Source: Desulfurococcaceae archaeon
GTDB lineage: Archaea; Thermoproteota; Thermoprotei_A; Sulfolobales; Desulfurococcaceae
Direction: 5' to 3'
Assembly (NCBI GenBank): GCA_038889555.1
Contig: JAWAHD010000001.1
Location: 1,016-65,015 of the forward strand
Length of the DNA: 64,000 nucleotides
The position numbers and the translations under genes were made by a program. Shown piece by piece: positions 13,050 to 43,349 of the stretch. Below the pieces are notes generated by a model. It saw only the letters and a program-made list of their open reading frames with translations, did not search any database and had not been told where the DNA came from. Within the stretch, counting starts at the first letter, position 1, and the number at the start of each line of letters is the position of its first letter.

Positions 13050-13154
13050 CTACTTTTTCTCCTCACTTTTCTGCTGCTTGGACTTTTCCTTGGCTTTTTC
13101 TCTGGTCTCCTTTGATCTCTCTTCCTCTGTTTTCTTGGTGGTCTCCTTCATCAT
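13050..13154 (-). CDS. possible micro-ORF, 34 aa, Lys/Glu-rich
   Basis: The - strand reads MMKETTKKTEEERSKETREKAKEKSKQQKSEEKK. A GTATAAAA element lies about 80 nt upstream on the same strand. It could equally be low-complexity non-coding sequence. Confidence 0.15.
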   Translation of the reverse strand: MMKETTKKTEEERSKETREKAKEKSKQQKSEEKK

Positions 13155-13246
13155 GAATATAGTTGTCTTCTGCCTACCACCCACACAGTTTCACCTGTTT
13201 CTGTTCTCGTTAAAAACAATACAGAGTAATCCAGTTTTATACCTGC

Positions 13247-14914
13247 TTAGCGCTTTTGCAGAGTTCTAAGTTTTAGTGGAGTATGAATGTTCAGCACCTT
13301 AGCATTCTTTAGAACAGCGTTGACGTATATAGCTTCACCAACGCTCAGCTTAGATAACACTGATGCCAGTTCCGGCTTTATTCCAAGTATTTTCCTCACT
13401 TTGTCCAGATACTCCTCGTTCTTAGACCCGAAGACTAGTATGTTATAGATGTTCTCCAGTATTTCGTTAGGGAAGTCTTCGGGACCTTGGGAGGATACCA
13501 CCACGCCTAACTTCCTACTCCTCCCCTCACGGACGATCTCTAGTAGTGTCTTCAATTTGAGTATTCTCCATGCATCATCTACTAGCAGGAGGAGACCTTT
13601 TTCGCTGCTCTCTCTAAGTAATAGATGTCTTACTATTCCGAGAAGTAGCGATGCATATGTGTTCTGGAAAGTTGTACCTCTACCTTCTAGGTTTATTAAA
13701 ACGCATGCGTTGCCTCGTGCTAGGTGCTTTTTAATCCACTCGTAATTCGTGTTTACTTCAATGAACTCTACGAATGGTATAATAACGGATGCGGAAGGGT
13801 TCTTTGAAGCTTCCTTGGCGTCTCTCTCCACGACAACTAAGGCTTTTAGAACAATTTCGGGACTTATACCACCAGCGTGAGATAAGGATTCTACGACAAC
13901 CCCCCTCCAGCTCATGTACTCAATACCTGGAGGAGGATTTAGGATGTTTATTGGTGCATAATCTGGGGTAAGAACAGGTATAAGTTCATCTGAGATGTAA
14001 TGACGAAGATCACCCTTAAAGTCTATGATAACGATATCAGAAAATCCCTCCGAGACAACCTGCTCTACTAGAGACGCTAGTAATGTGGATTTTCCTCTCC
14101 CAGTTGGGCCAATAACGGCTATGTGATGATATAAGTACTTAAGTTGGAGAATAACGGGATGCATAGTGTTCTTCTCGAAACCTATCAGAATTCCGGGTTC
14201 ATCGATCATAGGTTTGTCTAGCGTTACCGGTTGAAAATACGAAAGCCTATCTGCTTCGATGTGAATGCTTGATAACTCTGCTTTTGCATCCAAACCAAGA
14301 ACACTGAGAATGAACGAAGCTATTTCACTATAACCCGCTCTTTCAAGTCTAAGTCCAAAACTGTTCTTGAAAACAGACGTAACGATCGACTCGTAGTAGT
14401 CAGCTATGCTCTTGGCTGTACTTTTATCTTTTGCATCAACTCTGAACACCACGGCAAGTGATATCTTTAGAAAAGGTTTGCCTTCAATTATAGCATGGTA
14501 CAAGGTCTTCAGCTTATCAAGCTTAACTCTAAGTTTAAGCTTTTCTGTTTCGCTCTGAACGAGTTCGAGGTCAGCTTGCGTATTCAATATGGAGTTCTTG
14601 AGATTCTTTAGGTATCTATCCAGGTCGAACTCCTCCTTGTAAAGATACAAGTGAACACGCGATGGCAAGGACTTAAGCAGAGCTACATATTCCTCAAAGA
14701 TGGTTTTACTGCGTTCACTCAGAAGTTCTTCAACATCATACTCTGTATCTTTGCATATGAGTATTCTGCTTAAAACAACTCCGTTAGGGTATTGAATAAT
14801 CAAGTCCGGAGGATCTACCTCAATACTCCTTATTTTTAATTGCACAATTTTGAATCCTAGCTCTGTTAAAAACCTAGCGAGGAGCTTCACGGTTATCAAC
14901 CTCCTTGTGAACAA
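13247..14914 (-). CDS. VirB4/HerA-superfamily P-loop ATPase (CedB/TedB-like candidate)
   Basis: Walker A GPTGRGKST, Walker B GLLLLVDDAW, VVVSSQGPEDFP motif, and an about 250-aa non-ATPase N-domain. Last gene of a membrane-protein operon. The likely true start is GTG 14890, preceded by AGGAGG at 14900-14905. Confidence 0.65.
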   Translation of the reverse strand: MFTRRLITVKLLARFLTELGFKIVQLKIRSIEVDPPDLIIQYPNGVVLSRILICKDTEYDVEELLSERSKTIFEEYVALLKSLPSRVHLYLYKEEFDLDRYLKNLKNSILNTQADLELVQSETEKLKLRVKLDKLKTLYHAIIEGKPFLKISLAVVFRVDAKDKSTAKSIADYYESIVTSVFKNSFGLRLERAGYSEIASFILSVLGLDAKAELSSIHIEADRLSYFQPVTLDKPMIDEPGILIGFEKNTMHPVILQLKYLYHHIAVIGPTGRGKSTLLASLVEQVVSEGFSDIVIIDFKGDLRHYISDELIPVLTPDYAPINILNPPPGIEYMSWRGVVVESLSHAGGISPEIVLKALVVVERDAKEASKNPSASVIIPFVEFIEVNTNYEWIKKHLARGNACVLINLEGRGTTFQNTYASLLLGIVRHLLLRESSEKGLLLLVDDAWRILKLKTLLEIVREGRSRKLGVVVSSQGPEDFPNEILENIYNILVFGSKNEEYLDKVRKILGIKPELASVLSKLSVGEAIYVNAVLKNAKVLNIHTPLKLRTLQKR

Positions 14915-15047
14915 GTGTTAGTACCGTAAGAAACACTGCAGATAGTATTAAGTAGAGTATATCACCAGTAAAGTAGTACTCGATTGCACCATACACAGCA
15001 ACTATCGACATGACTAGTAGTTTAACAACATTGGTTTTTCTACTCAT
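14874..15047 (-). CDS. 57-aa two-TM membrane micro-protein (CedA2-like position)
   Basis: Not in the ORF track. Reads MSRKTNVVKLLVMSIVAVYGAIEYYFTGDILYLILSAVFLTVLTLVHKEVDNREAPR. Its ATG overlaps the TGA of the upstream 455-aa gene (ATGA at 15044-15047), and its 3' end overlaps the ATPase start. Confidence 0.45.
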   Translation of the reverse strand: MSRKTNVVKLLVMSIVAVYGAIEYYFTGDILYLILSAVFLTVLTLVHKEVDNREAPR

Positions 15048-16411
15048 AAATTACCAGCCGCCAATCTCATAATTGTACTAGAGTATCCTCCGAGTAACCT
15101 TGCTACACTTATGGAGATCGTGACAAGAATACCCATGTAGATCATGGGAAGTAGTACCAACTCAATGAAGCCGTACACAGCGTAGACAAACAAAGCCTCA
15201 GGTGAGAACACGTCCACTTCCACGGCTTTCAGTATGAAAGGCTCTATGGCTACGTTTATTGGTGTGGTCTTGTAGAAGTCTAGGACTATGGTTAAGTTGT
15301 AAGTGCCCGGATTTATTGAAATCTCGTAGATGGAGTACCAGACACCATACCATTCTCCTATTCTTCTACTTGGACTTGATACAACAGTGTTGTTTAAGTA
15401 AATTGTAACACCGTCTTCACTTTCCGTGTATATCTCTATAGAACCATCTACACCCGTGTGTAGCTGTACCTGAACAACTCTATCGGCTCTCTCCACCCTT
15501 AGTATTGTTATGTTAGAGCTAAAGAACACGAATCTATTGGGAGCAAGGAATACTCCATCCACAACTTGGTATGTTCTGTTTATAGGCTCCTCATTTCTTC
15601 TTCTGAAGGTTGCTACGTATGTGTTATTGGCTATATCAAATACGATCGTGTGGTCCCTACACGGAAATCCCAAGCCAGCTGAAACAACAAGTTCACCTTG
15701 CTCATTGAGTTTGTACTTGTAAAGTAACTCTCCTGTTCTAGAATCATAACCTTCGATTACAGCAGGACCCATGGAAGTCCTAGTAGCATCCAATAATCTA
15801 AGACTAGCCGCACACACTGGTTCTTTGTACCTTAGTGGTGGTTGAACACCGCTAATGATCAGAGACGAAAAGGCGGGCATTAGTGGTATTCCTAGAATAA
15901 ACACTATTGCGAAGGATAGTATTGTTGATCCAACGCTCCTGGTTAATTTGAATGGAACAGCGTGTAATACGAGCCCTAGAGCCATTAGTAGTTTAAAAGA
16001 CGTGAATAGAACAGTTGCTATTACTAGAATAAATAGGAGCATCATATAGCATGATGCAACTAGATTGGTTATCGGAGTTAAAATAACTGAGGTAATAAAC
16101 CTGAAACCTAGTTTATCTAAAGCAATACCTAGAGCCTTGAGAATTGCCAGAAGGTTTGTGATCATGGATATCCTGTCTGTTAACCAGTAGCCGAACGCGA
16201 TCCAATCACTACCTAATACACGCCCCAAGTACTCCATTAACCGAAATATCAAGTTGTATGAGAACACCAGAGTCGCAGAAAATAATCCATCGGCAACAAG
16301 ACTTCTACCTAGCTTCTTAATGCTAATAAATGGCAGAGGCAAAGCTTTTAGTAGAAGACCTAAGCAGTAGGATAGTACAGAGAGATAGAATGCTAATGCT
16401 AGTAAGTCCAT
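15044..16411 (-). CDS. polytopic membrane protein with large extracytoplasmic insert (CedA/VirB6-like candidate)
   Basis: About 5-6 N-terminal TM helices, an about 215-aa hydrophilic beta-rich segment with 5 N-x-S/T sequons, then C-terminal TM helices. Sits between two small hairpin proteins and a VirB4-like ATPase. Confidence 0.5.
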   Translation of the reverse strand: MDLLALAFYLSVLSYCLGLLLKALPLPFISIKKLGRSLVADGLFSATLVFSYNLIFRLMEYLGRVLGSDWIAFGYWLTDRISMITNLLAILKALGIALDKLGFRFITSVILTPITNLVASCYMMLLFILVIATVLFTSFKLLMALGLVLHAVPFKLTRSVGSTILSFAIVFILGIPLMPAFSSLIISGVQPPLRYKEPVCAASLRLLDATRTSMGPAVIEGYDSRTGELLYKYKLNEQGELVVSAGLGFPCRDHTIVFDIANNTYVATFRRRNEEPINRTYQVVDGVFLAPNRFVFFSSNITILRVERADRVVQVQLHTGVDGSIEIYTESEDGVTIYLNNTVVSSPSRRIGEWYGVWYSIYEISINPGTYNLTIVLDFYKTTPINVAIEPFILKAVEVDVFSPEALFVYAVYGFIELVLLPMIYMGILVTISISVARLLGGYSSTIMRLAAGNL

Positions 16412-16441
16412 TTAAAACGGCACCGTTTCTGCGGACAAGTG

Positions 16442-16723
16442 CTAAGGCATTTGAGGTGGTTGTGGCATTGGTAACTGAATTGACGATGTGATGTAAGATA
16501 TGATCGCAAATACCGTCGTTCCCATGGCTAACCAGAAAGCAGCCCACAGGGCATCCTCGATCATCTTACTACCTGTCTTCTTAACTTTCACGAACGGTAA
16601 TGGTAATCCTTTTATTAACCAGCCGATAACCCAGGCGAGCAGAAAAACAAACCAAGCTATAATAACCACCATTGTTATTAAACCTTTGACAAACTCTACA
16701 ACACTCACCATTATCACCCACAA
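16442..16723 (-). CDS. small two-TM hairpin protein (CedA1/VirB2 pilin-like candidate)
   Basis: 93 aa (TTG start; alternative ATG at 16711). Two hydrophobic helices are separated by KGLPLPFVKVKKTGSK, with a Pro-rich tail. First gene of the operon. Confidence 0.5.
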   Translation of the reverse strand: MWVIMVSVVEFVKGLITMVVIIAWFVFLLAWVIGWLIKGLPLPFVKVKKTGSKMIEDALWAAFWLAMGTTVFAIISYITSSIQLPMPQPPQMP

Positions 16724-16780
16724 TAATGAGCATCTTAACTAGAGGAGAGAATGGCGAAAGTTACACAGCGGTGAACTGCT

Positions 16781-18709
16781 ATGAGAAAGTTGTGGCCTAA
16801 AACGGTGAAAATCTACTGGGATCCTTGGCGCAACATACCTGTAGTAAAGCCAAATCAGGAAGAACTAGACCTCTTTTATCAACTTAGATTAAGTGAACCG
16901 GGGGATGCAAGACCAGCTTTTCCAGGGGACCTAGAGAAAATAAAAGAAGCTATTGCACACGAGTTTGGAAGTACTAAGCTGTTCGATCACCTAGTGAAAG
17001 ACCGCATAGTTCTGCTCAATAAAGTTCCACACTGGGATCTTATGTACGAAGTTGTAGTTTCAGGAAACGTCATAGGACAACTCTACTACGATCCATACAA
17101 ATGTAAGTGGAGATTTAGGTTAACTTACCAGGGCGCTTACACAGCTGTACAAAACAACCTTGTTGACACCATAAGAGGTGATCCCCCCTACTACAGCGGT
17201 AAAGTAGTAAGGGAGGAGTATAGCTCAAGTGCTAGAGAGCTTGTGCTGATCGACCATAAAGGTACTATAAGAGGGGTGTGCGAAGTACTACCAAAAGGCG
17301 AGGTGGTGATCTCAAAAACCTTTCATGATAAAACAGCGCCTGTGGAAACCAGTGATAAACCAGCATCTGTGCAAGATTTAGTAAAGTACAATGAAGAAGG
17401 TATCTTAACTCTAGAAGAGAAATCGATCAAGTACTTGAGAAGACTCTTCAGTAGATACTCTAACCTTAGACCCGTAGTATCGTACTCCGGTGGAAAGGAT
17501 AGTCTCGTGGCACTGGATCTAGCTCATAGAGCATTCGGAGACCTCGACATTCTGTTCAATGATACCGGCTTGGAGATGCCTGAAACTCTACGCAACGTCG
17601 AATACGTGGCAAACTACTATGGTTATAAGCTATACGTAGCATCAGCCGGCGACATCTTCTGGAGAGCAGTAGATGTATTTGGTCCACCCGGTAAGGATTA
17701 CCGGTGGTGTTGTAAGGTAACTAAACTAGTACCTATTGCAAAGTTGACTAAAGCTGTATGGCCCAATGGGGGTTTCAACATAGTTGGTCAAAGAGCTTAC
17801 GAGTCGCTAGATAGAGCATCAAGTCCTCTCGTCTGGAGGAACAAATGGATACGGCACATGGTGAGTACAACGCCTATTCAGTACTGGAGTCAACTTTCAA
17901 CGTGGATCTACATATTTAAGTACAATCTCCCGTTTAACAAGCTCTACACATATGGATTCGACAGACTCGGATGTTTCATGTGCCCTTCATGTGCTTTAGC
18001 TGAATTTGAGGAAACCAAGAAGTTGTACCCAGATCTCTGGGGAAGATGGGAGCACGTGCTGAGAACCTGGAAAAATAGAATGACTATGCCCGAAGAGTGG
18101 ATAAAGCTTGGATTGTGGAGATGGCTTACACCCGCTACCGCGAAGAAAAGGTTGATGCATCATGTTCCAGCATACTCAATGGACTGGAGAAAGGAGTACA
18201 TACAAAGGCTTGAAAAGAGCAAGTCGAGCTTAATCCCCCTAGCTGTTGTGAAAGAAGGAGATAAGATCACAATACAGTTTAGCAAGAATCTTCTACCAGA
18301 GGATCAAGTAGGCGTGTTCATCGCCAATATGGGAAGTTTAGGTTTCATCGTTGTCAGCAAAGAGCCACTTGTGTTCGAGAAAGCGAACGCTAGGTACATG
18401 ATCAAGCACAACACCATTAATGTATCAAACTACAAAGATGAACTGTTCGAAGACCTTGTCGACGTCCTGAAGGTCATTTATAGAATGCATAATTGCGTAT
18501 ACTGTGGTAGTTGTGTACTATGGACTAGAAAAGGTAGTGTTGCATTAACACCAAAGGGACCTATAGTAAAGAATGATATGTCCGAAAGCGAGAAAAGAGT
18601 GTACATGGAAATATGCCCTATAAGCGATCAGCTCGTCGAGAAAGTGGTACTCTCTCTGTTACTTAATGATTACAGAGCGTTCAAGAGGAAGACTAGACGT
18701 AGGATATAG
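16781..18709 (+). CDS. PP-loop ATP pyrophosphatase / PAPS-reductase-family protein, multidomain (642 aa)
   Basis: PP-loop motif VVSYSGGKDSLVALDL. Cys motifs WCCKV, GCFMCPSC and a C-terminal CVYCGSC...CP (ferredoxin-like). An about 200-aa N-terminal extension. Confidence 0.7.
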   Translation: MRKLWPKTVKIYWDPWRNIPVVKPNQEELDLFYQLRLSEPGDARPAFPGDLEKIKEAIAHEFGSTKLFDHLVKDRIVLLNKVPHWDLMYEVVVSGNVIGQLYYDPYKCKWRFRLTYQGAYTAVQNNLVDTIRGDPPYYSGKVVREEYSSSARELVLIDHKGTIRGVCEVLPKGEVVISKTFHDKTAPVETSDKPASVQDLVKYNEEGILTLEEKSIKYLRRLFSRYSNLRPVVSYSGGKDSLVALDLAHRAFGDLDILFNDTGLEMPETLRNVEYVANYYGYKLYVASAGDIFWRAVDVFGPPGKDYRWCCKVTKLVPIAKLTKAVWPNGGFNIVGQRAYESLDRASSPLVWRNKWIRHMVSTTPIQYWSQLSTWIYIFKYNLPFNKLYTYGFDRLGCFMCPSCALAEFEETKKLYPDLWGRWEHVLRTWKNRMTMPEEWIKLGLWRWLTPATAKKRLMHHVPAYSMDWRKEYIQRLEKSKSSLIPLAVVKEGDKITIQFSKNLLPEDQVGVFIANMGSLGFIVVSKEPLVFEKANARYMIKHNTINVSNYKDELFEDLVDVLKVIYRMHNCVYCGSCVLWTRKGSVALTPKGPIVKNDMSESEKRVYMEICPISDQLVEKVVLSLLLNDYRAFKRKTRRRI

Positions 18710-18724
18710 CTGAAGAGCGCTATG

Positions 18725-21541
18725 CTACTCCTCTTCTTTGTCTGTAATATACTTCTTCACCATCAAGAACTTCTTCTCGCACTCAGCTACCTCAGATGCA
18801 AGGTCAGCTCCTTGCTGAACTCTATTTATAATTCTGATCAATTCCTGCGTACCAACACCTCTACCAGCAAACGCCAATAACGCTTTTTCACCATATCTGT
18901 AAAGAAGTACGGCTCTCTTAGCTAGATCCTCGTGTAGTCTACGCTCCTCAGAGTTGAGCTTTTTGCCTGATCTAAGCTTATTTACAACCTCCATTTCTTT
19001 TGTTAAATCACCTTTAACCATAGTTAACGTAGCTAAACCGCATTTAGGACACGAGTAATCAGATAAACCCATGAAGTCCTTTACAGCTCCTTCTTTATGG
19101 AACCCGCAATTAATGCATAACAAGGTTATTCTTCTCTTGAGCAGTCTCTCGTAGTAGCTCGAAGTATCGAATAGCGTTACATCAAGTAATTTTGGTATTT
19201 CTATGTAATTTAATTGAACAACATGGTGTTTGTCGAGTGTATCGTAAACTCTGAACTCCACTTTAACAATACTCCTTTTTATCTTATCAGTCAGCTCCTC
19301 GAAAGAATCTATATCGTAGTCTCTTGTTAAAACTTCTCTTAGAGCTTCTTTACCTATGATAGTGTTTACGTACGCTTCAACGAGCTTCCTACTGACCCTG
19401 GTCTCAGGGGTTATTGCTCCAAATCTTTGAGCCACCTGGTATATTCTCCAAAGACACGTAGTGCTCTCTACTGCGATTTTTTCTATAAAACTTCTATTTG
19501 TAAACTCATATAGCTTGGCAATTTTGTTGTAGATCATGCTTTTTGTGAATTCTATGGATACAGGATCTTCGAACTTGACTACTATAGTGTACGGAGTAGC
19601 GTGTACATAGAATTTAACCTGTGGATATGTGGACTTAATTATGTACTTTAGCAAGTCTTTAATCAGGTTATTGAGCCTGGATCCACCGTACAAATTGATT
19701 AGTACTAAACCAGGTCTTCGTACATAATCAACGTATATTACGTGGCTATCTCCAAGCTCAGCGGCTTGTTCACATTCGATGTTGCCATCTACAAGTTTTC
19801 TTAGGTGTTCGGGAGGGCTTCCGTTCTCTTTGATGTATTTCACGGCTTTTCCTACTTCATAAGCAATATGGTAATCCACAGGTATGTTCTCACCTTCCCA
19901 GTGTGGTATGATGGCTACCTCGGGATCAGCTTTGGCTGGTTCAACGTACAGCTTACCTTCTGCATCGTCATACCCTACAACTCTCCAGGGTTTACCAGCT
20001 AGTACCAGGAGGTCCCCTGGATTAAGGTAGAGTACTACGTATTCCTCGTCTAAGCTGCCAACTCTTTCTGCTTTATCAACAGAGACTACGTTTATTTCTC
20101 TACTAGACGGTATCATTGACACCTTATAGAGGTATAACTTGGTTTTCCTCGTAGGATAAAGCAGGTTTTTCTCTAGTTTTACCACCCGTGTATATGCTAA
20201 GTAGTTTATGGTCTCACTGTAGTCTTCTTTTGTTAAGTTGGAGTAGAGAGGATACTTCACCAGTTCTTCGTAAAGCATGTCAACGTCAACTCCATTTGGA
20301 CTTATGAAGGTGAAAAGTGCTATAGCGTATGCTAATACGTCGAGTGGAGTATTGGAAATAAGCTCATGCTCTAAGAAGCCCTCCTTGGCTTTCAGAGCTA
20401 TAATACTGGATTCAAGTAGATGGAGCAAGTTAGATGTTGATACTACTGCGCCTCTACTCACTTCTTCTATTCTATGACGACTTCTCCCGATTCTCTGAAC
20501 AAGCCTAACTACCTGTCGTGGAGACATGTACTGAACAACGTAGTTTACATGCCCTATGTCTATTCCAAGCTCTAAACTCGAAGTAGCAATTAAGGCGTTA
20601 AGCTTCCTATGCTTGAAGTCTAATTCTACTTTCTCTCTGTGAGCTTTTGAAAGGCTTCCGTGATGAACCTCCAAGCTAATATCTAAACCATGTTTTTCAG
20701 ATAAGCTTTTCATCAGAGCTCCTAACTTCTCGGCTAAACTCCTAGTGTTTGTAAAAACTAGTACATGCTTCTCATTTTCAATAGCCTTGAACAAAGTTTC
20801 CAATCGGGCGGCGAGTTGAAGGTCAGTAAGGTCTTTGTTCAAAGCCTTGCAGAACTCACTACTACACACCGGCACTACTACCTTAACATCCATGTTTCTA
20901 GTAGACGTATCCCTCAGCACTATAACGTTATTGTTGTACGGGTTGAGGAGTCTTTTCGCATATTCCTCGGCTTTGCTACTCAAAGTCGCTGTTAGGGCTA
21001 TCTTTGTAAGCTTTTTACCTAAGTATTTCTCGAGAAGGTAGATATTGGTGAGAAGAAGTAATCCACGTTTATTCTCAAGAAGATCCCTAAACTCGTCTAA
21101 CACAATGTACTCCAGATTTACTAGATGTTTCCTAGTTTCATCGTTAATCACTATGTAATTAAAGGTCTCAGGTGTGGTTACAAGTATGTGTGGAGGAGCT
21201 TGAGCTATTAGTTTTCTTACGTGTTGCGGCGTATCTCCGTGTCTTATAGCTACCTGTAGACCAAAGCACTTGCTTATTCTTTCAAGTCTACTCGCTATAT
21301 CCCTATTCAGAGCTCTCAACGGTGTAATGTACAGGACAGCTATGGGCTTGAGCTTTCTTAGAGATACCTTAAGCATTACAGGAAACATAGCAGCCTCCGT
21401 TTTACCGCTGCCGGTTGGTGCAACGATTATGAACGAGCCTGTGCTTTTGTAAATTTCGCGCACGCTTCTTCTCTGAATTTCCGTGAGGTTTCTGTAGCCG
21501 AGTTCTTTTAAGCAGACAGCTATTTTGTTAATATCCTCCAT
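18725..21541 (-). CDS. lhr: Lhr-type large superfamily-2 helicase
   Basis: 938 aa. Motif I APTGSGKTEAA, motif II VLDEFRDL, and RIGRSRH-type motif VI. A long C-terminal extension carries CINCG...CPKCG (zinc ribbon). Confidence 0.8.
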   Translation of the reverse strand: MEDINKIAVCLKELGYRNLTEIQRRSVREIYKSTGSFIIVAPTGSGKTEAAMFPVMLKVSLRKLKPIAVLYITPLRALNRDIASRLERISKCFGLQVAIRHGDTPQHVRKLIAQAPPHILVTTPETFNYIVINDETRKHLVNLEYIVLDEFRDLLENKRGLLLLTNIYLLEKYLGKKLTKIALTATLSSKAEEYAKRLLNPYNNNVIVLRDTSTRNMDVKVVVPVCSSEFCKALNKDLTDLQLAARLETLFKAIENEKHVLVFTNTRSLAEKLGALMKSLSEKHGLDISLEVHHGSLSKAHREKVELDFKHRKLNALIATSSLELGIDIGHVNYVVQYMSPRQVVRLVQRIGRSRHRIEEVSRGAVVSTSNLLHLLESSIIALKAKEGFLEHELISNTPLDVLAYAIALFTFISPNGVDVDMLYEELVKYPLYSNLTKEDYSETINYLAYTRVVKLEKNLLYPTRKTKLYLYKVSMIPSSREINVVSVDKAERVGSLDEEYVVLYLNPGDLLVLAGKPWRVVGYDDAEGKLYVEPAKADPEVAIIPHWEGENIPVDYHIAYEVGKAVKYIKENGSPPEHLRKLVDGNIECEQAAELGDSHVIYVDYVRRPGLVLINLYGGSRLNNLIKDLLKYIIKSTYPQVKFYVHATPYTIVVKFEDPVSIEFTKSMIYNKIAKLYEFTNRSFIEKIAVESTTCLWRIYQVAQRFGAITPETRVSRKLVEAYVNTIIGKEALREVLTRDYDIDSFEELTDKIKRSIVKVEFRVYDTLDKHHVVQLNYIEIPKLLDVTLFDTSSYYERLLKRRITLLCINCGFHKEGAVKDFMGLSDYSCPKCGLATLTMVKGDLTKEMEVVNKLRSGKKLNSEERRLHEDLAKRAVLLYRYGEKALLAFAGRGVGTQELIRIINRVQQGADLASEVAECEKKFLMVKKYITDKEEE

Positions 21542-21631: not shown

Positions 21632-23539
21632 ATGAGCTTAAATAATGAAGTGAGAAAATACTTATTCGCTGTGTATGTGTTGTGGTTTTTTAACTGTATA
21701 CTGTACTTTCTGTCTTCTGGTCCACTGAAACCCACATTGACGCTTAGAGGTATAAGCTTATTCGATCTGCTAAGCTACACGAGGGTTCTAAACCAAGTGG
21801 TAGAGTTCGTAGGATATCTTATCGTATCCTTGATTCATATGACCGCGTCCATTTCAATAACCGGAAACATAGTATTAGCATTGATAAACCGCGCGCTTCT
21901 AATCGTTCAGCTATCTCTACTTGGTTTCGATCGTATAAGTTACGGTGTTTTAATTCGTGAGTTTGCAATACTGATGTTTGCTTTGTTTATACTGAGGGCA
22001 ATATCTCATGGTTCTATACCAAAACTTAGTACTATTGACCTGTTCGTTGGTTTGAAGAATCTAGTAATTAGTGTAGTTCGAGATAAAGAATGTAGAGTGA
22101 AGATTGATGCGGTCGCTTACATGCTTGCTCTACACAGTTTAGCATTATCTCTTCTCATACTATGGACGTTCTCAAACACAAGTGTACAGGATTTATACGC
22201 AATTGGAGGTGTACTGATGATCGTATTTGTGATAATACCTTTACTTCAAATAGGTCTTTTAACTGTGATCTCAAGAAGCGTGGAGAAATCGTCCTTAATT
22301 CTTCTAATGAGCGCTATTTCCGGCACAGGACTTCTAGGTACAATACCAATGCTGATGTCCATCGGTTGTATAGGTTCAACACGCTTACAACCAGCACACG
22401 CGAGATTCTCTAAGCTGAAAGCCACTGGCTTATACATGGGTACAGTGTTAGCAGAGCTTACAAGTAAAAAGATGCTGGAGAAGGAGGAGTGGTATTGGAG
22501 CAGTAAATCGTTCCCTCTTTACCTGGATCTCGACAAGCTTAACACACCGCACATCATAATCATAGGGTCGTCTGGAACCGGTAAAACAACGCTGGCCAAA
22601 CACATAGTTCAGGAAGCAAAGAGAAAGTACAATTACAACGTGATCATAATAGACTTGCACGGCGAATATCATGGTTTACAGGATAAGCTGGGGCTTAAGA
22701 TAATAGATGCCTCAAGCTGTGGCGTAAATCCACTTGCACTAGGAAATGCTTCACCAAAAGATAGAGCAATGCAGGTAGCGCACATAATATCCACGATGTT
22801 TGATCTTGGGCCACTTCAAAGGAGAATGATTGAAGAGGTGATAACGGAAGCTTACAACCTACGTGGTATAAATCAAAGAGATCCAACCACCTGGAGCAGA
22901 GATCCACCCACGCTCCAAGAGCTCGTAGAGGTTTGCAAGAGGCTTATCAAAGAGAATTTCGAGTACAGTCGTATCCTACCCTATTTGGAAATGCTAAGTG
23001 AAAGTCTGAGTACGGAGTGTTGGTTAAGCGTAGACAGCGTTCTCGAACACGACAGTCTTATAGATCTAAGCAGAGTAGCTAGCGATTTCGCGAAAACAAT
23101 CTTCATAGATACGTTAATGTATCTTCTACTGAACAGAATGTACACTATGGGTAAGAGAAAAATACAGTTGTTATTAGACGAGGCAAGAAGTTTGATGCCT
23201 AGAGCTGTAACTCGAGAGATCATCAGTAGGCTATTTGTGGAGAGCAGGAAATTTGGATTTTCACTAATCGTAATCTCGCAGGAGATAGGTAAAATACCTC
23301 GGGATTTCGTTAACAATGCCGGGGCACGCGTGTTCTTTCTACTAAATGATCCGAAAAGCGTTGAAGAAGCATCAAGAATACTCAGTGGAACAAGTCTTAG
23401 GGATAAAGTGTCTATAGTAGCAGAGGCGCTTAGAACTCTTAGGCAACATACTTTCTTAATTCACATTACAGGCTTAAACAAAGTGTATATTGTCAGCTCG
23501 CCTATTGGATCAGAAGAGCATAAAAATAAGTATGGCTAA
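21632..23539 (+). CDS. membrane-anchored HerA/FtsK/VirD4-type P-loop ATPase
   Basis: An N-terminal about 250 aa with about 6-8 predicted TM helices is fused to an ATPase. Walker A GSSGTGKTT followed by IIIDLHGEYHGL (HerA/DUF87-like), Walker B IQLLLDEARSL, and FSLIVISQEIGKIP. Confidence 0.65.
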   Translation: MSLNNEVRKYLFAVYVLWFFNCILYFLSSGPLKPTLTLRGISLFDLLSYTRVLNQVVEFVGYLIVSLIHMTASISITGNIVLALINRALLIVQLSLLGFDRISYGVLIREFAILMFALFILRAISHGSIPKLSTIDLFVGLKNLVISVVRDKECRVKIDAVAYMLALHSLALSLLILWTFSNTSVQDLYAIGGVLMIVFVIIPLLQIGLLTVISRSVEKSSLILLMSAISGTGLLGTIPMLMSIGCIGSTRLQPAHARFSKLKATGLYMGTVLAELTSKKMLEKEEWYWSSKSFPLYLDLDKLNTPHIIIIGSSGTGKTTLAKHIVQEAKRKYNYNVIIIDLHGEYHGLQDKLGLKIIDASSCGVNPLALGNASPKDRAMQVAHIISTMFDLGPLQRRMIEEVITEAYNLRGINQRDPTTWSRDPPTLQELVEVCKRLIKENFEYSRILPYLEMLSESLSTECWLSVDSVLEHDSLIDLSRVASDFAKTIFIDTLMYLLLNRMYTMGKRKIQLLLDEARSLMPRAVTREIISRLFVESRKFGFSLIVISQEIGKIPRDFVNNAGARVFFLLNDPKSVEEASRILSGTSLRDKVSIVAEALRTLRQHTFLIHITGLNKVYIVSSPIGSEEHKNKYG

Positions 23540-23586: not shown

Positions 23587-23901
23587 GTGTTTAAGGTGTC
23601 TTCGATGCTTTTCTACGAGGAAGAGTATAGGAGCGAGGTTGAGGAAGCTAGTGGAGAAAAGGAAGAAACGGTCATAGAAGAAGAGGAAGGAGAACTAGTG
23701 GTTGAGCAGTTGAAATTGCTAGTAAAAGTGTCCAGAACATGGCAACAAGTACTCCAGGGTCGAGAATCCGTGGATGCTTTAAAATCTCTATACAAACCGG
23801 CGACGAAGACTGTTCGCGTGTCAACTACAGCTGAAAGAAAAGCTGAAACTACCAGGAAGAAGCCCCAGTCTAAATCCCGAAGAAGGTCTAAGCCAAGTTA
23901 G
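23587..23901 (+). CDS. small acidic-N/basic-C protein, possible RNA polymerase subunit Rpo13
   Basis: About 100 aa. Acidic N-terminus (EEEYRSEVEEASGEKEETVIEEEEGE), a central helical segment (LKLLVKVSRTWQQVLQGRESVDALKSLYK), and a basic tail (RKKPQSKSRRRSKPS). This organisation and size match my recollection of Sulfolobus Rpo13. Confidence 0.4.
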   Translation: MFKVSSMLFYEEEYRSEVEEASGEKEETVIEEEEGELVVEQLKLLVKVSRTWQQVLQGRESVDALKSLYKPATKTVRVSTTAERKAETTRKKPQSKSRRRSKPS

Positions 23902-24278
23902 AACTCCTTGTACTCGAACAGTACTTCGGAATAGCCAATCTCGTTAAGTGCTTTTACTAAAAGCTCCCTCGGCACTTTTTTATCAAATACGAACTCGACT
24001 ATTTTACTATCTCCGTTTTTTATCAATTTAATCTTCTGCACAACAGTTCTTCCACGGATCGATTCAGCGATGTCCTTAGGAACAACTAAATAGCTTTCGT
24101 ATCTTCTTTTTGCTATACCGTAGTACTCGTCGAAGTTTTCAATTATTCTCTTCGCTTCTTCGAGGTCTTTTGTAATACCGTGTATTGATATTATGGACTC
24201 AACGAGCTTTACTGCGAGATGTTGTTCAAGTTTTACATGAAAGCACTTTGCTAGGTCCACCTCTACTGTAATCTTCAT
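23898..24278 (-). CDS. hypothetical protein (126 aa)
   Basis: Clean ORF with an ATG start, convergent with the preceding gene. No motif recognised. Confidence 0.5.
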   Translation of the reverse strand: MKITVEVDLAKCFHVKLEQHLAVKLVESIISIHGITKDLEEAKRIIENFDEYYGIAKRRYESYLVVPKDIAESIRGRTVVQKIKLIKNGDSKIVEFVFDKKVPRELLVKALNEIGYSEVLFEYKEF

Positions 24279-40017: not shown

Positions 40018-40159
40018 ATAAACACCATACTGAATAAACTATCTTCACAGTTAGGTTATAAGCAACAAGAATACTATCGGTTAACTCTACCTAGTACACC
40101 TTATAACTTTTACCCGTGAACCCGCTTCAAAAACACCTATACTTTATTGGGATTCGTCC

Positions 40160-40552
40160 ATGAAGGGGGTTTCGGGAATAGTTGCAACGGGTATCTTACT
40201 AGCGTTAACAATAGCTGGCGGCGTACTCCTCTACTCGTACATTACCAGGTACTTAACAGTGTTCACTAACTCAGCGGATATTGTAATTACGAACGCGTAC
40301 TACGTTAAATCGCTGAACAAACTCTGCGTTACAGTAAGGAACGTAGGTTTAACTCCAACAACTGTGACAGGAGTTGAAGTCATATTAGCAAACAGAAGCA
40401 TTTCAGCTAGTAATCAAACATATGATATCCCAGCAGGTGGAGAAAGAACCATAGAAATAAACGTCGATCTCACAGAGGCCCCTCTCTACGTTATTGTGCG
40501 GTACGATAGAGACAAGCGAACGGATCCATACACGGTAAGGGTATTTGGCTGA
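40160..40552 (+). CDS. archaeal type IV pilin-like protein (class III signal peptide)
   Basis: MKG|VSGIVATGILLALTIAGGVLLYSYI. A short charged leader ends in KG and is followed by a hydrophobic helix (PibD-type site). First gene of the pilus-assembly cluster. Confidence 0.65.
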   Translation: MKGVSGIVATGILLALTIAGGVLLYSYITRYLTVFTNSADIVITNAYYVKSLNKLCVTVRNVGLTPTTVTGVEVILANRSISASNQTYDIPAGGERTIEINVDLTEAPLYVIVRYDRDKRTDPYTVRVFG

Positions 40553-40570
40553 TAAACACAGGTGTAATCA

Positions 40571-42073
40571 ATGAAGATCTCCAAAAGGTTTTCTTTTAGG
40601 TCTCCTTTTTCTTCTTTTAAATTTAGCTTATCCATTCCTTATGCAAGGAAGAACATTGATCCCACAACCTCGAACATTTTGAATATGTTGCTCGAGAACC
40701 AGCTCAAAGGTTACATTATTGAGAACGTAAGCCTGGACAGCATCCTATATACCTACAGTTTGCATAACGTTGTTGAAATCTCTGTTGGAGAACACGGTAA
40801 TGAAGTTTTTTACGTTGTTAAGGAGCCGATGTACGACAAGGAGGTTTTAGCTCAGGTTACACGAGAACTCTCCAGTAGAGTTTTCTCCGACGAACAGGTT
40901 ATTTCTAGCATAAAAACTATGCTCGAGAAGAAAGAGCTCAAACCCACCGACTACGTGTACTTCAAAGTAACAAGCGGTCTTGGTCCTCTCACACCTCTTG
41001 TTTTAGACCCTCATGTCGAGGATATTCATTTGAGTAAGTCTTCTGGCAGAATTTATGTTGTTCACAATTCTTTTTCTTGGATTGGCTGGTTGAAGACTAA
41101 CATAGTAGTTAAACCAGAGCTAGTAGATCAGCTGGTTCTCGCTCTATCTAGAAGAGCTGGAAAACACATATCACTTGTTCAACCACTCGTCGAGGGATCA
41201 CTAGAGGGTGTTTTGAGAGCTAGTTTGGTTTACAGTGGAAGCATAGCTCAGCTTGGTAGTAGCATAGTACTAAGGAAGAAAAGTGGAGCGACTCACACCA
41301 TTACAAAACTGATAAACGAGGGAACAATTTCGTCTGCGGTTGCAGCATACCTTTGGCTTGTGATAGAGAACAAGGGTTGGATCGTAATCGCAGGCCATGT
41401 TGGCTCTGGGAAAACCACCTTGCTTCAAGCATTACTGAGCCTTATACCAAGGAACAAGAAGATCATCACAATAGAAGACTCCCCTGAAGTCTACGTTCAA
41501 AGCGAACTATGGGACTCTTTCGTTGAAAACCACGAGGTTTTTTCGAGATTACCTCAAGTGGATGCTTTCGCGCTTCTCAAATTCGCTCTTCGTAGAAGAG
41601 CAGACTATATAGTTATTGGTGAAGTTAGAGGAGTTGAAGCGAGGTTATTGGTTCAAGCTTCGAGATTAGGACACGGTGTGCTGAATACCATACATGCTGA
41701 TGGTGCACAGTCTGTTCTTGAAAGACTCATGGCATCTCCAATATCAATTCCAAAGAACCTTCTGGGTAACATATGGACGATTGTGCTGACAGAACTTGTT
41801 GGTAAAACAAGAAAAGTGGTAAGTATTACAGAAGTAAACAGCGACGTAGAACTGGTAGAAATATGCAGTTCCTTTGTACCATGTAGCTTAGAGAATATTG
41901 CTCAGAGGTCTGTCAGGCTCGCTAAGATCTACAATAGTGAAGAACTGTACCAGGAACTTGCTCGTAGAGCGATCTTCCTAGAAAAACTAGTCTCCGAGGG
42001 TGTTTTCGCGCCAGAAGCACTGGCACGTAGGCTCTTCGAGTTTTACGCGGGAAGACACGTGGAGGTTGAATAG
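40571..42073 (+). CDS. type II/IV secretion-family assembly ATPase (PilB/FlaI/VirB11 superfamily)
   Basis: Walker A GHVGSGKTT, Walker B/Asp box ADYIVIGEVRGVEA, His box NTIHAD. Confidence 0.85.
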   Translation: MKISKRFSFRSPFSSFKFSLSIPYARKNIDPTTSNILNMLLENQLKGYIIENVSLDSILYTYSLHNVVEISVGEHGNEVFYVVKEPMYDKEVLAQVTRELSSRVFSDEQVISSIKTMLEKKELKPTDYVYFKVTSGLGPLTPLVLDPHVEDIHLSKSSGRIYVVHNSFSWIGWLKTNIVVKPELVDQLVLALSRRAGKHISLVQPLVEGSLEGVLRASLVYSGSIAQLGSSIVLRKKSGATHTITKLINEGTISSAVAAYLWLVIENKGWIVIAGHVGSGKTTLLQALLSLIPRNKKIITIEDSPEVYVQSELWDSFVENHEVFSRLPQVDAFALLKFALRRRADYIVIGEVRGVEARLLVQASRLGHGVLNTIHADGAQSVLERLMASPISIPKNLLGNIWTIVLTELVGKTRKVVSITEVNSDVELVEICSSFVPCSLENIAQRSVRLAKIYNSEELYQELARRAIFLEKLVSEGVFAPEALARRLFEFYAGRHVEVE

Positions 42074-43349
42074 CTTGTTGCTAAGAGTACTCGGTAAGAG
42101 GAGATTTCTACATAAATGCTACGATGACATGTTCCTCGACTTTCTAGTGCAACTAGCAAGCTTCGAGTCTAGTGGTTTAAAGATCTATCACTTATTCGAG
42201 AGCATTAGAAGAGGTGATATCGAGCTCGGTGAGTGCTATAGCGCTCTCTCGAACCAGTATACTGTACTAGAGAGTTCTCTAGGTGCACCTCACCTGGCTT
42301 TGAGAAAGATTGCTGAATCTGTACCTTCTTCAGAGCTCTCTAAATTTCTGAGAGATTACAGTACCGTGTTAGTTACTAGTGGTAATACGAAGTACTTCGT
42401 TGAATCTGTGCTTAAGCAGGAGTTTGCTAGGTTTAGGACAAAGGTTAATGAGCATCAGAGAGCACTAGATACGTTCTACGAAGCGTATCTAGTTGGGGTT
42501 CTAGTGCTGATGTTCCTCATGGTGCTACCCATATGGGGTTTGCTCCCGCTTCTTGGACTACTCGTAATCTATGCGCTGGGCATGACTGGGTATTTCTTCG
42601 CGTATAGACTATGCGTAAAGCTCCATTACACAATCCCTGGCTACGTAGTGTTCAGCGATATTCTCTTTTCAACGTTAGGAGTTGCTCTAGCCATGTCTTT
42701 CGAGGCGATGTTCCTACTACCTGCAATATTACTTGTTCTACACGCGACTACGAGAAAACACGTTGCTGTGAACAATATTCTCGAGCAGGAATCGTTCCGC
42801 GTAATCTACGATACTTACTCGCAGGTGTTAATGGGTAGACCAGTGAGTACAGCATTGCTGGAGTCCCTAGGTTCCTCTAGCTCGGCTCGGTACAGGTTAC
42901 TCTGGTTTAGTTTAATGCTGGGCGTTAACCCAAAGAAAGTTTTAAAGATGATTAAGCTTCCAAAACTAGCCTTCAAGGTACTTCTCTTCTCGCTTGCAAC
43001 TATGCTTTACAGCTCAGCTGAAGGTAAACACCTTGTCCACGCTGTTGATTACTTGGACGAAATTGCATCGGTGAGAAAACAGGTACGCGAGAAGACAAAG
43101 CAGTACGTTCTGTACTCCTTTGTAGTAATATTTCTTGTAGTAGTAGCCTACATTATGCTATTGAGAATACCACTAGCATCACCCTTAGACAAGCACGCGT
43201 TTTCAGCTTACAGTAGTATAGGTTTTCTAATGGTGATGCTGCCAGTGGTTCTAATCAGAGACGGAGGATTCGCTTCCTCGCGAAGCGCGATATTAGTAGT
43301 ATTCGCAGCGCTTACTTCGTATTTGGCGATGATGAACTTAGCTATTTAA
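42066..43349 (+). CDS. type IV pilus platform membrane protein (TadC/FlaJ/GspF-like)
   Basis: Polytopic membrane protein directly after the ATPase. The ORF-track start at 42000 overlaps the ATPase by 74 nt, so the in-frame TTG near 42066 is preferred (uncertain). Confidence 0.65.
   Translation: MNSLLLRVLGKRRFLHKCYDDMFLDFLVQLASFESSGLKIYHLFESIRRGDIELGECYSALSNQYTVLESSLGAPHLALRKIAESVPSSELSKFLRDYSTVLVTSGNTKYFVESVLKQEFARFRTKVNEHQRALDTFYEAYLVGVLVLMFLMVLPIWGLLPLLGLLVIYALGMTGYFFAYRLCVKLHYTIPGYVVFSDILFSTLGVALAMSFEAMFLLPAILLVLHATTRKHVAVNNILEQESFRVIYDTYSQVLMGRPVSTALLESLGSSSSARYRLLWFSLMLGVNPKKVLKMIKLPKLAFKVLLFSLATMLYSSAEGKHLVHAVDYLDEIASVRKQVREKTKQYVLYSFVVIFLVVVAYIMLLRIPLASPLDKHAFSAYSSIGFLMVMLPVVLIRDGGFASSRSAILVVFAALTSYLAMMNLAI

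Follow-up and report, generated by a model that had tools for sequence, protein, structure and literature searches.

The minus-strand locus at positions 13247-16723 of the window, a 64,000-nucleotide stretch of DNA from an uncultured hot-spring Desulfurococcaceae archaeon, is best read as a chromosomal Ced (crenarchaeal exchange of DNA) system, a reading to which a probability of roughly 0.87 is assigned. Four genes make up the locus, in the order cedA1, cedA, a micro-open reading frame (micro-ORF) in the position of cedA2, and cedB. The Ced reading proposed in the original prediction is upheld by homology for the products of cedA1, cedA and cedB, and by position for that of the micro-ORF. The novelty of the finding is nevertheless lower than that prediction implied, since Ced has already been documented in the Desulfurococcales and the Pyrodictiaceae (PMC9905601, PMC11823120, PMC12518558). 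Published reports also cover the Acidilobales, and the conservation described below agrees with them; the present locus is thus a further member of a known system and nothing categorically new. The window shares about 97% identity with two metagenome-assembled genomes (MAGs) from hot springs, both named "Desulfurococcaceae archaeon", ZZQ_201803_bins_11 and ZZQ_201901_bins_23 (loci L007 and L009 of the comparison set).

All four tightly packed ORFs that had been predicted on the minus strand are found, at 16442..16723 (93 aa, TTG start), 15044..16411 (455 aa), 14874..15047 (57 aa) and 13247..14914 (555 aa, TTG start). cedA1 and cedA are separated by 30 nt, the predicted ATGA overlap of the cedA stop and micro-ORF start codons is present in the sequence, and the micro-ORF and ATPase ORFs overlap. 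These junctions argue for translational coupling of the four genes, which form one tightly coupled unit, presumably a single operon transcribed from one promoter. An oligo-T run at 13212..13216 (minus strand), 31 nt past the cedB stop codon, may represent an archaeal terminator.

The same arrangement recurs widely. In a set drawn from the contigs of relatives and from a scan of species-representative genomes, cedA1, cedA and cedB are collinear in 47 distinct Desulfurococcales loci, and an ORF of 44-70 aa occupies the gap between cedA and cedB in 46 of these (43 when a strict hydropathy filter is applied), so that the co-occurrence of the four genes in relatives, on which the original prediction was to be judged, is evident. 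The recurrence of the collinear unit in so many loci places the gene arrangement far beyond chance. Two complete genomes, those of Thermogladius sp. KZ2Tp1 and 4427co (loci L029 and L036), belong to the set, as do one MAG of Staphylothermus and MAGs of Pyrodictiaceae and Hyperthermus; the presence of the same locus in cultured Thermogladius strains opens the questions raised here to experiment. The cassette is kept even where its flanks have changed, as in L005, which carries three extra upstream genes, and in L006, which lacks the ribosomal neighbour. The extra genes of L005 (L005:1205-8133, identical to L030) encode proteins of 1485, 109 and 662 aa, match no Pfam family, and lie between the PAPS-reductase gene and cedA1.

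The product of cedA1 matches the NCBIfam CedA1 model NF041797 with 110.3 bits, above the equivalog cut-off of 100, and aligns over residues 3-75 with the Ced pilin of Aeropyrum pernix (PDB 8DFU; E = 1.5e-21). The ORF reaches back to TTG 16723, and a start at ATG 16711 is more likely, since both the family alignment and the match to 8DFU begin there; cedA1 would thus span 16442..16711 (minus strand) and encode a two-helix, VirB2-like pilin of 89 aa. Mean column identity among 15 orthologues is 67%. In A. pernix a CedA1-type pilin polymerises with lipids into a conjugation-type pilus (PMC9905601), and through homology to this solved pilus the CedA1 of the window is a VirB2-like hairpin. The related Ted system, which had been offered as an alternative identity, is excluded by these results, as the three large products match Ced models and the pilin matches 8DFU.

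The second gene, cedA (15044..16411, minus strand), encodes a polytopic channel protein of 455 aa, which matches the NCBIfam model NF041796 (E = 1e-35, 123 bits) and also CedE (91 bits, 8e-26). Its first 60 residues form a hairpin homologous to CedA1 and match both CedA1 and 8DFU; a CedA1-like N-terminus of CedA has already been recorded by Beltran et al. (PMC9905601). The AlphaFold2 model (mean pLDDT 87.7) consists of helices over residues 3-186, a β-rich region with strands at 202-378, and a long C-terminal helix at 404-443. Residues 187-400 (214 aa; 15212..15853, minus strand) constitute a β-rich ectodomain, apparently of two β-sandwich domains. Once residues 191-396 are removed, the CedA model (259 positions) is matched without a break from position 6 to position 252 by residues 2-240, and this single end-to-end alignment identifies the ectodomain as a clean insertion. 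The inserted domain alone matches no family, and a Foldseek search with the full model, dominated by its β domains, retrieves the S-layer stalk protein SlaB (8qox_B, 6.6e-5), the Gram-positive pilin BcpA and transthyretin-like folds; the predicted fold resembles generic Ig-like or transthyretin-like sandwiches. N-X-S/T sequons occur at 1.94 per 100 aa in the inserted domain versus 0.08 in the membrane part, two cysteines are present in the domain in 23 of 27 homologues, and the loop ahead of the preceding helix is basic. Sequon density, paired cysteines and the basic loop suggest that the domain lies outside the cell, where it is probably N-glycosylated. Since CedA, measured by longest ORF, is 452-501 aa long in all 47 loci, the ectodomain-bearing form is apparently shared by all the Desulfurococcales loci examined and not peculiar to this window. 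No description of it was found in the searchable literature. The claim that the proteins carry features not described for Ced holds in part: the CedA ectodomain is real.

The fourth gene, cedB, encodes a VirB4/HerA-superfamily ATPase with no transmembrane segment. Its ORF extends to TTG 14914; GTG 14890 is the more likely start, because AGGAGG precedes it and because the 97%-identical MAG protein P0028 is 547 aa long, the length that this start gives (13247..14890, minus strand). The Walker A (14084-14110) and Walker B (13568-13594) coordinates on the minus strand were verified, and the motifs previously quoted for the ATPase are present, GPTGRGKST at residue 269, LLLLVDDAW at 441 and SSQGPEDFP at 474 of the 555-aa ORF. 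Among NCBIfam models the product scores highest with CedB (72.5 bits), followed by CedD (57.1), HerA_Thermprot (38.3) and a VirB4-like model of integrative and conjugative elements (ICEs; 28.8), and the VirB4 and TrbE models reach at most 20 bits. Its grouping was judged by the best family and by a reciprocal profile search, in which a profile of the cedB clade (A1), run against 1.84 billion representatives, gave 54 matches below 1e-30; CedB was the best family in all 20 of the best 150 matches that were labelled with NCBIfam, and none of these was HerA or VirB4. The profile also reaches genuine CedB proteins of the Sulfolobales, and P0129 (763.9 bits) and P0134 (720 bits), both past the CedB cut-off, align with it over their full length at E of about 1e-26. 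The N-domain matches the CedB model, from model position 51 onwards, and not HerA. A fused N-terminal two-helix hairpin is found on CedB in L038-L045 and L052, as in the Sulfolobales, and has been lost in the clade of the window and in Thermogladius. The AlphaFold2 model of CedB (pLDDT 83) finds TrwK/VirB4 of plasmid R388 first in Foldseek (8rtd_O, 7.3e-17), then Sulfolobus HerA (4d2i, 3e-16). In the literature CedB is described as a HerA/VirB4-like protein, with which these search results agree. The outcome that was to count against the proposal, a grouping with NurA-associated HerA, does not emerge from these comparisons, in which CedB is the best family, above HerA. A HerA-NurA helicase is likewise not indicated, the HerA score being 38 bits against a cut-off of 800 and the neighbours being membrane proteins, with no NurA, Mre11 or Rad50 among them.

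Several results weigh against the assignment and must be set beside this evidence. The CedB score of 72.5 bits lies far below the equivalog cut-off of 700, as does the CedA score of 123 bits relative to a cut-off of 330; both equivalog models were built on Sulfolobales. As the scores miss these cut-offs, orthology of CedA and CedB rests on best-hit logic together with synteny. In fold space HerA is nearly as close to CedB as is VirB4, and a profile search of the PDB by sequence returned HerA-family chains (4D2I, 3e-12) and no VirB4. No relation of CedA to VirB6 was detected, either by Foldseek, whose results were dominated by the β domains, or by a PDB profile search, which retrieved 8DFU only.

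The micro-ORF (14874..15047, minus strand; 57 aa, two hydrophobic helices) overlaps the cedA stop codon and is a candidate cedA2, assigned to Ced by position where the other three products are assigned by homology. In the Sulfolobales, cedA2 occupies the same position within the order saci_0569-0568-0567. The product matches no Pfam or NCBIfam model; mean identity within the family is 26%, and jackhmmer connects the nearer relatives only. CedA2 has been described in the literature as poorly conserved or not conserved, and a homologue has been stated to be absent in A. pernix (PMC11868833); the near-universal presence of a micro-ORF at this site across the Desulfurococcales loci is thus a modest new point. 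Two other identities were considered and rejected. As a CedA1 paralogue or second pilin, the product obtains an hhalign probability of 0.6%, and accordingly the earlier view of the small proteins as VirB2-like hairpins stands for CedA1, with its homology to a solved pilus, and is not supported for the 57-aa protein. As a detached CedB membrane anchor, comparable to a VirB3-like split, it fails at the sequence level: joined to CedB it gives no extension into CedB model positions 1-50 (72.8 versus 72.5 bits), and the clades with a fused two-helix CedB anchor (L038-L045, L052) also keep a separate micro-ORF. The basic residues of the product lie at both termini and not in the loop, a charge pattern which suggests a membrane topology opposite to that of CedA1.

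The genomic setting is that of a chromosomal locus. On one side the operon is flanked by a SPOUT methyltransferase gene and the L3-L4-L23-L2 ribosomal operon, and on the other by genes for a PAPS-reductase-domain protein, an Lhr-type helicase, a polytopic ATPase and PCNA; farther away lie genes for pyruvate oxidoreductase, RadA, ThrRS and topoisomerase VI, a type IV pilus operon and purine biosynthesis genes. Every ORF scanned is consistent with the claim that core genes flank the locus and that integrase and plasmid genes are absent; a few of these ORFs have no family match. Scans of the window for tRNA and Rfam families gave no match. An integrated conjugative plasmid or ICE, of which the operon would be a remnant carrying VirB2, VirB6 and VirB4 homologues, is hardly credible in this setting. 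Ced is derived evolutionarily from type IV secretion systems (PMC9905601), and the best fold match of CedB is to a plasmid protein, R388 TrwK; yet no integrase or relaxase was found among the scanned ORFs, no repeats were noted, the GC content of the operon (0.414) is like that of the window (0.428), the core-gene synteny is held in 47 loci, and among 72,556 plasmids a single weak match of 27% identity was obtained. The locus is thus a chromosomal apparatus and not a mobile element, as had been proposed.

Two further observations concern the ribosomal side of the locus. Between cedB and the SPOUT methyltransferase gene lies another micro-ORF (13050-13184, minus strand; GTG start in the window), Lys/Glu-rich and without a family match, which is also present in relatives (L001:13224-13346, L003:13271-13372, L005:12050-12175); its products are 33-44 aa long, with a conserved N-terminus MGGRQ(K/R)TT(I/L/S)(F/L)F. 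Ribosomal protein L3 (10919-12112, minus strand) has 397 aa compared with the 342 positions of the archaeal L3 model, which aligns to it as three stretches, and this suggests an insertion of about 55 residues. Homologues are of 396-397 aa in L001, L003, L005, L029 and L036, and of 338-378 aa, by longest ORF, in L017, L038, L047, L048 and L054.

Upstream of cedA1 lies a candidate DNA-damage-response element (DDRE), GTAACTTTCGCCATTCTCTC, at 16745..16764 (minus strand), the core of which, ACTTTC (16756-16761), is 50 nt upstream of the cedA1 ATG. The hexamer is followed by a C-rich second half-site and then by an AT-rich, TATA-like box, TAGTTAAGA, at 16733..16741 (minus strand), 14 nt downstream of the hexamer and identified by inspection; relatives carry TTATTAAA, TTTTAT or TTATAA in this position. 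Compared with the 20-bp consensus of Sulfolobus islandicus, AATAGTTTCRGWDTACTCWS, the element agrees in the ANTTTC core and at 8 of the 11 positions that follow it; this consensus is the footprint of Orc1-2 and is needed for the induction of S. islandicus cedA1 by NQO (PMC6061795). A box of the form A(C/G)TTTC recurs about 50-60 nt upstream of cedA1 across relatives: of 37 non-redundant regions upstream of cedA1, 29 have A[CG]TTT[CT][GA] at -70 to -45, compared with 12 of the 441 ORFs that served as controls from these loci, and in L005 the box stays with cedA1 although the upstream neighbour differs. Orc1-2 homologues have been reported for Desulfurococcus, Hyperthermus and Aeropyrum (PMC12490963). 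The box would thus be a damage-response element of the Sulfolobales type, and its conservation before cedA1 across the Desulfurococcaceae suggests that the Orc1-2 circuit is older than the split of the two orders.

This regulatory reading is weakened on several counts. The box is short, and the binomial P value assumes more independence than loci of common descent can offer. In a scan of the window with a leave-one-out weight matrix, the sites upstream of genes were confined to the pilin operon (17.3) and cedA1 (14.0), scores which overlap those of shuffled sequence, the cedA1 site itself falling inside the shuffled range (mean maximum 12.9, highest 19.1). No site was found upstream of the Lhr, PCNA or PAPS-reductase genes, or of the second, polytopic ATPase, and RadA has only an ill-placed AATTTC at 114 nt; no orc1-2 gene is present in the window. 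In a deep-branching Pyrodictiaceae-type clade (L038, L047, L048, L052, L054) no ACTTTC box was seen upstream of cedA1. There, AGTAC recurs about 5-10 nt upstream of a strong TATA box, TTTATAAG or TTTTTAA, and may be a different regulatory element.

A working model can be put forward from the combined evidence. DNA damage would act through an Orc1-2-type activator at the box to raise ced expression; CedB, probably a hexamer, would drive pilus assembly and draw DNA inward via CedA, and by analogy RadA-dependent repair would use the imported DNA as its template. The presumably glycosylated β-sandwich ectodomain of CedA would stand between the membrane and the S-layer and could act as a collar or spacer at the base of the pilus. 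The 57-aa protein would be an accessory membrane subunit and may tether CedB, which lacks a transmembrane segment in the clade of the window, and the polytopic ATPase 4.9 kb away may act as a second motor resembling CedD or VirD4.

DNA import, its inward direction and induction by damage are presumed for this Ced family by analogy, import for repair having been demonstrated experimentally only in the Sulfolobales (PMC11823120, PMC11868833). A Ced-homologous apparatus that does not import DNA here, with a CedA1 pilus serving adhesion, cell contact or DNA export and an ATPase devoted to pilus biogenesis, is an unlikely reading of the same genes. CedA1 and CedE of S. islandicus contribute to export as well, a large glycosylated CedA ectodomain would suit surface recognition, and the study of the A. 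pernix pilus makes no mention of UV treatment for the cells from which Ced pili were obtained (PMC9905601). Set against this, all core import components are kept and translationally coupled, the promoter box of damage-response type is conserved, and no relaxase or donor-processing genes lie nearby. The importing Ced system is preferred.

The divergent neighbourhood of cedA1 bears on the completeness of the system. The polytopic ATPase (21632..23539, plus strand; 635 aa, about seven N-terminal transmembrane helices) is a motor of the CedB/CedD/VirB4/DptH type lying 4.9 kb from the operon, a paralogue of the cedB product that is annotated as "ATP-binding protein" in MAGs. It scores 67.9 bits with CedB, 52.6 with CedD and 51.6 with TraC in NCBIfam, and in the PDB it matches DptH (3e-14) and VirB4 (4ag5, 5e-7). 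It adjoins the ced locus even in distant Pyrodictiaceae-type loci (L038, L047, L048, L054, L055), where it and the PAPS-reductase gene stand as a divergent pair directly beside cedA1. In the Sulfolobales, CedD is a second, VirD4-like ATPase and is essential. The polytopic ATPase may be a fifth component in such a CedD/VirD4-like role; as a test of CedD orthology, searches with NCBIfam, Pfam, PDB and local phmmer gave no separation of CedB, CedD and VirB4. The PAPS-reductase-domain protein (16781-18709, plus strand; 642 aa) matches NCBIfam PRK13795 hypothetical-protein models and, weakly, DndC and SspD. Its gene is divergent from cedA1 in most loci examined; in L005/L030 and L040/L041 inserted genes lie between the two, and in L055 it is absent between Lhr and cedA1. 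The Lhr-type helicase gene (18725-21541, minus strand) adjoins it. Between the polytopic ATPase and PCNA two small proteins are encoded, one of 104 aa (23587-23901, plus strand) with an acidic N-terminal half and a basic C-terminal tail, and one of 126 aa (23898-24278, minus strand) with a weak SduA/DUF4263-like match, the position of which is kept in L038, L047 and L054.

This neighbourhood also raises the prospect of a Dnd- or BREX-type DNA-modification or defence island, in which the HerA-like "CedB" would be a defence or repair helicase and not a secretion motor. PADLOC assigns BrxP to 16781-18709 (164 bits), SngC and BrxHI to 18725-21541 (271 and 258 bits), DndH to 21632-23539 (94 bits), and mad8 and HerA to CedB (66 and 48 bits), and the DptH C-domain (7ES4) matches both ATPases well. 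Such an island is nonetheless very improbable, given that PglZ, BrxC, DndA-E, a DptFGH set and NurA/Mre11/Rad50 partners are all missing from the window, that the block is fixed beside the L3 ribosomal operon across the whole order, unlike patchy defence islands, and that the homologue of CedA1 in the solved structure is the subunit of a pilus. The fit of the CedB N-domain to the CedB model rather than to HerA, and that of the PAPS-reductase family to hypothetical-protein models, point the same way. Because partner genes are lacking and the block is fixed by the ribosomal operon, the adjacency of the PAPS-reductase, helicase and ATPase genes to the Ced system is treated as conserved synteny of uncertain significance.

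A type IV pilus operon at 40070-43349 (plus strand) encodes a 130-aa pilin, an ATPase of the FlaI/T2SSE family and a T2SSF-like membrane protein, and has relatives at L087:2700-6179 and L088:2850-6201. The pilin has a class III signal peptide, and its sole NCBIfam match, which covers the full length but stays below the cut-off, is UpsA (32.9 bits, E = 6e-8). Of all sites in the window, AATACTATCGGTTAACTCTA, 87 nt upstream of the pilin ATG, fits the cedA1-promoter matrix best; it agrees with the S. islandicus DDRE consensus at 17 of 20 positions, with a core of ACTATC and not ANTTTC. The two related operons carry ACTAAC and a canonical AGTTTC at the equivalent place, before a TATA box. Downstream of the operon, an ORF of 883 aa (44573-47224, plus strand) has no Pfam or NCBIfam match. 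No canonical ups operon is present in the window, and Ups pili are confined to the Sulfolobales according to the literature. It is possible, though doubtful, that the Desulfurococcaceae possess a complete DNA-exchange regulon under Orc1-2/DDRE control, in which Ced and UpsA-like operons would share a bipartite box and would be joined with a lineage-specific, ectodomain-bearing CedA and universal CedA2-type micro-proteins. If this were true, damage-induced "community DNA repair" with an Ups-like aggregation pilus would reach beyond the Sulfolobales.

To our knowledge, Ced is the sole known cellular system that imports chromosomal DNA for repair with conjugation-type hardware, and studies of its regulation and of its partner pili, as of the damage-response box, are so far limited to the Sulfolobales. 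Specialists may find the locus of interest for its conserved promoter box, for the ectodomain of CedA and for the micro-ORF, which is conserved as well; the ectodomain should matter for the passage of the pilus base through the S-layer and for structural models of the channel. The anchorless CedB, the polytopic paralogous ATPase and the UpsA-like pilus with its similar box may be the parts that the machine still lacks.

Comparison with known systems sets the locus in perspective. Bacterial conjugative type IV secretion systems (R388; 7O41, 8RTD) share with it the TrwK/VirB4 fold of CedB and a hairpin pilin that precedes a polytopic channel protein, but no VirB3, VirB8, VirB10, VirD4, relaxase or outer-membrane complex is seen here, nor any VirB6 similarity, and the direction of DNA transfer is presumed to be the opposite. 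The Ted system of the Thermoproteales (TedC, TedA, TedB; PMC9905601) is likewise chromosomal and follows a VirB2/VirB6/VirB4-like logic, yet no sequence similarity to Ced can be recognised in its parts, and the signal peptide of TedC is cleaved off, whereas the pilin of the window is a clear CedA1, the alignment of which with the A. pernix pilin, itself unprocessed, begins at residue 3. The Ced system of A. pernix (Beltran et al. 2023, PMC9905601) belongs to an organism of the same taxonomic order and is also chromosomal, with an orthologous CedA1 pilin, a polytopic CedA and a CedB ATPase; it differs in that a CedA2 homologue is stated to be absent there (PMC11868833), in contrast to the 44-70-aa micro-ORF of the present loci. 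In the Sulfolobales, Ced comprises CedA1-CedA-CedA2 together with separate CedB, CedD and CedE (PMC11823120, PMC11868833). By contrast, no canonical ups operon is present here, and the counterpart of CedD in the window is uncertain; the window CedB lacks the N-terminal transmembrane hairpin of about 50 residues, the window CedA carries a 214-aa ectodomain that is not in the 259-position model, and cedB, separate in the Sulfolobales, is joined to the same operon. What the two share is the order of cedA1, cedA and a small hairpin gene, the membrane core of CedA from end to end, a homologous CedB N-domain and motor, and a promoter box, that of the window matching the ANTTTC/DDRE element ahead of cedA1 in S. 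islandicus.

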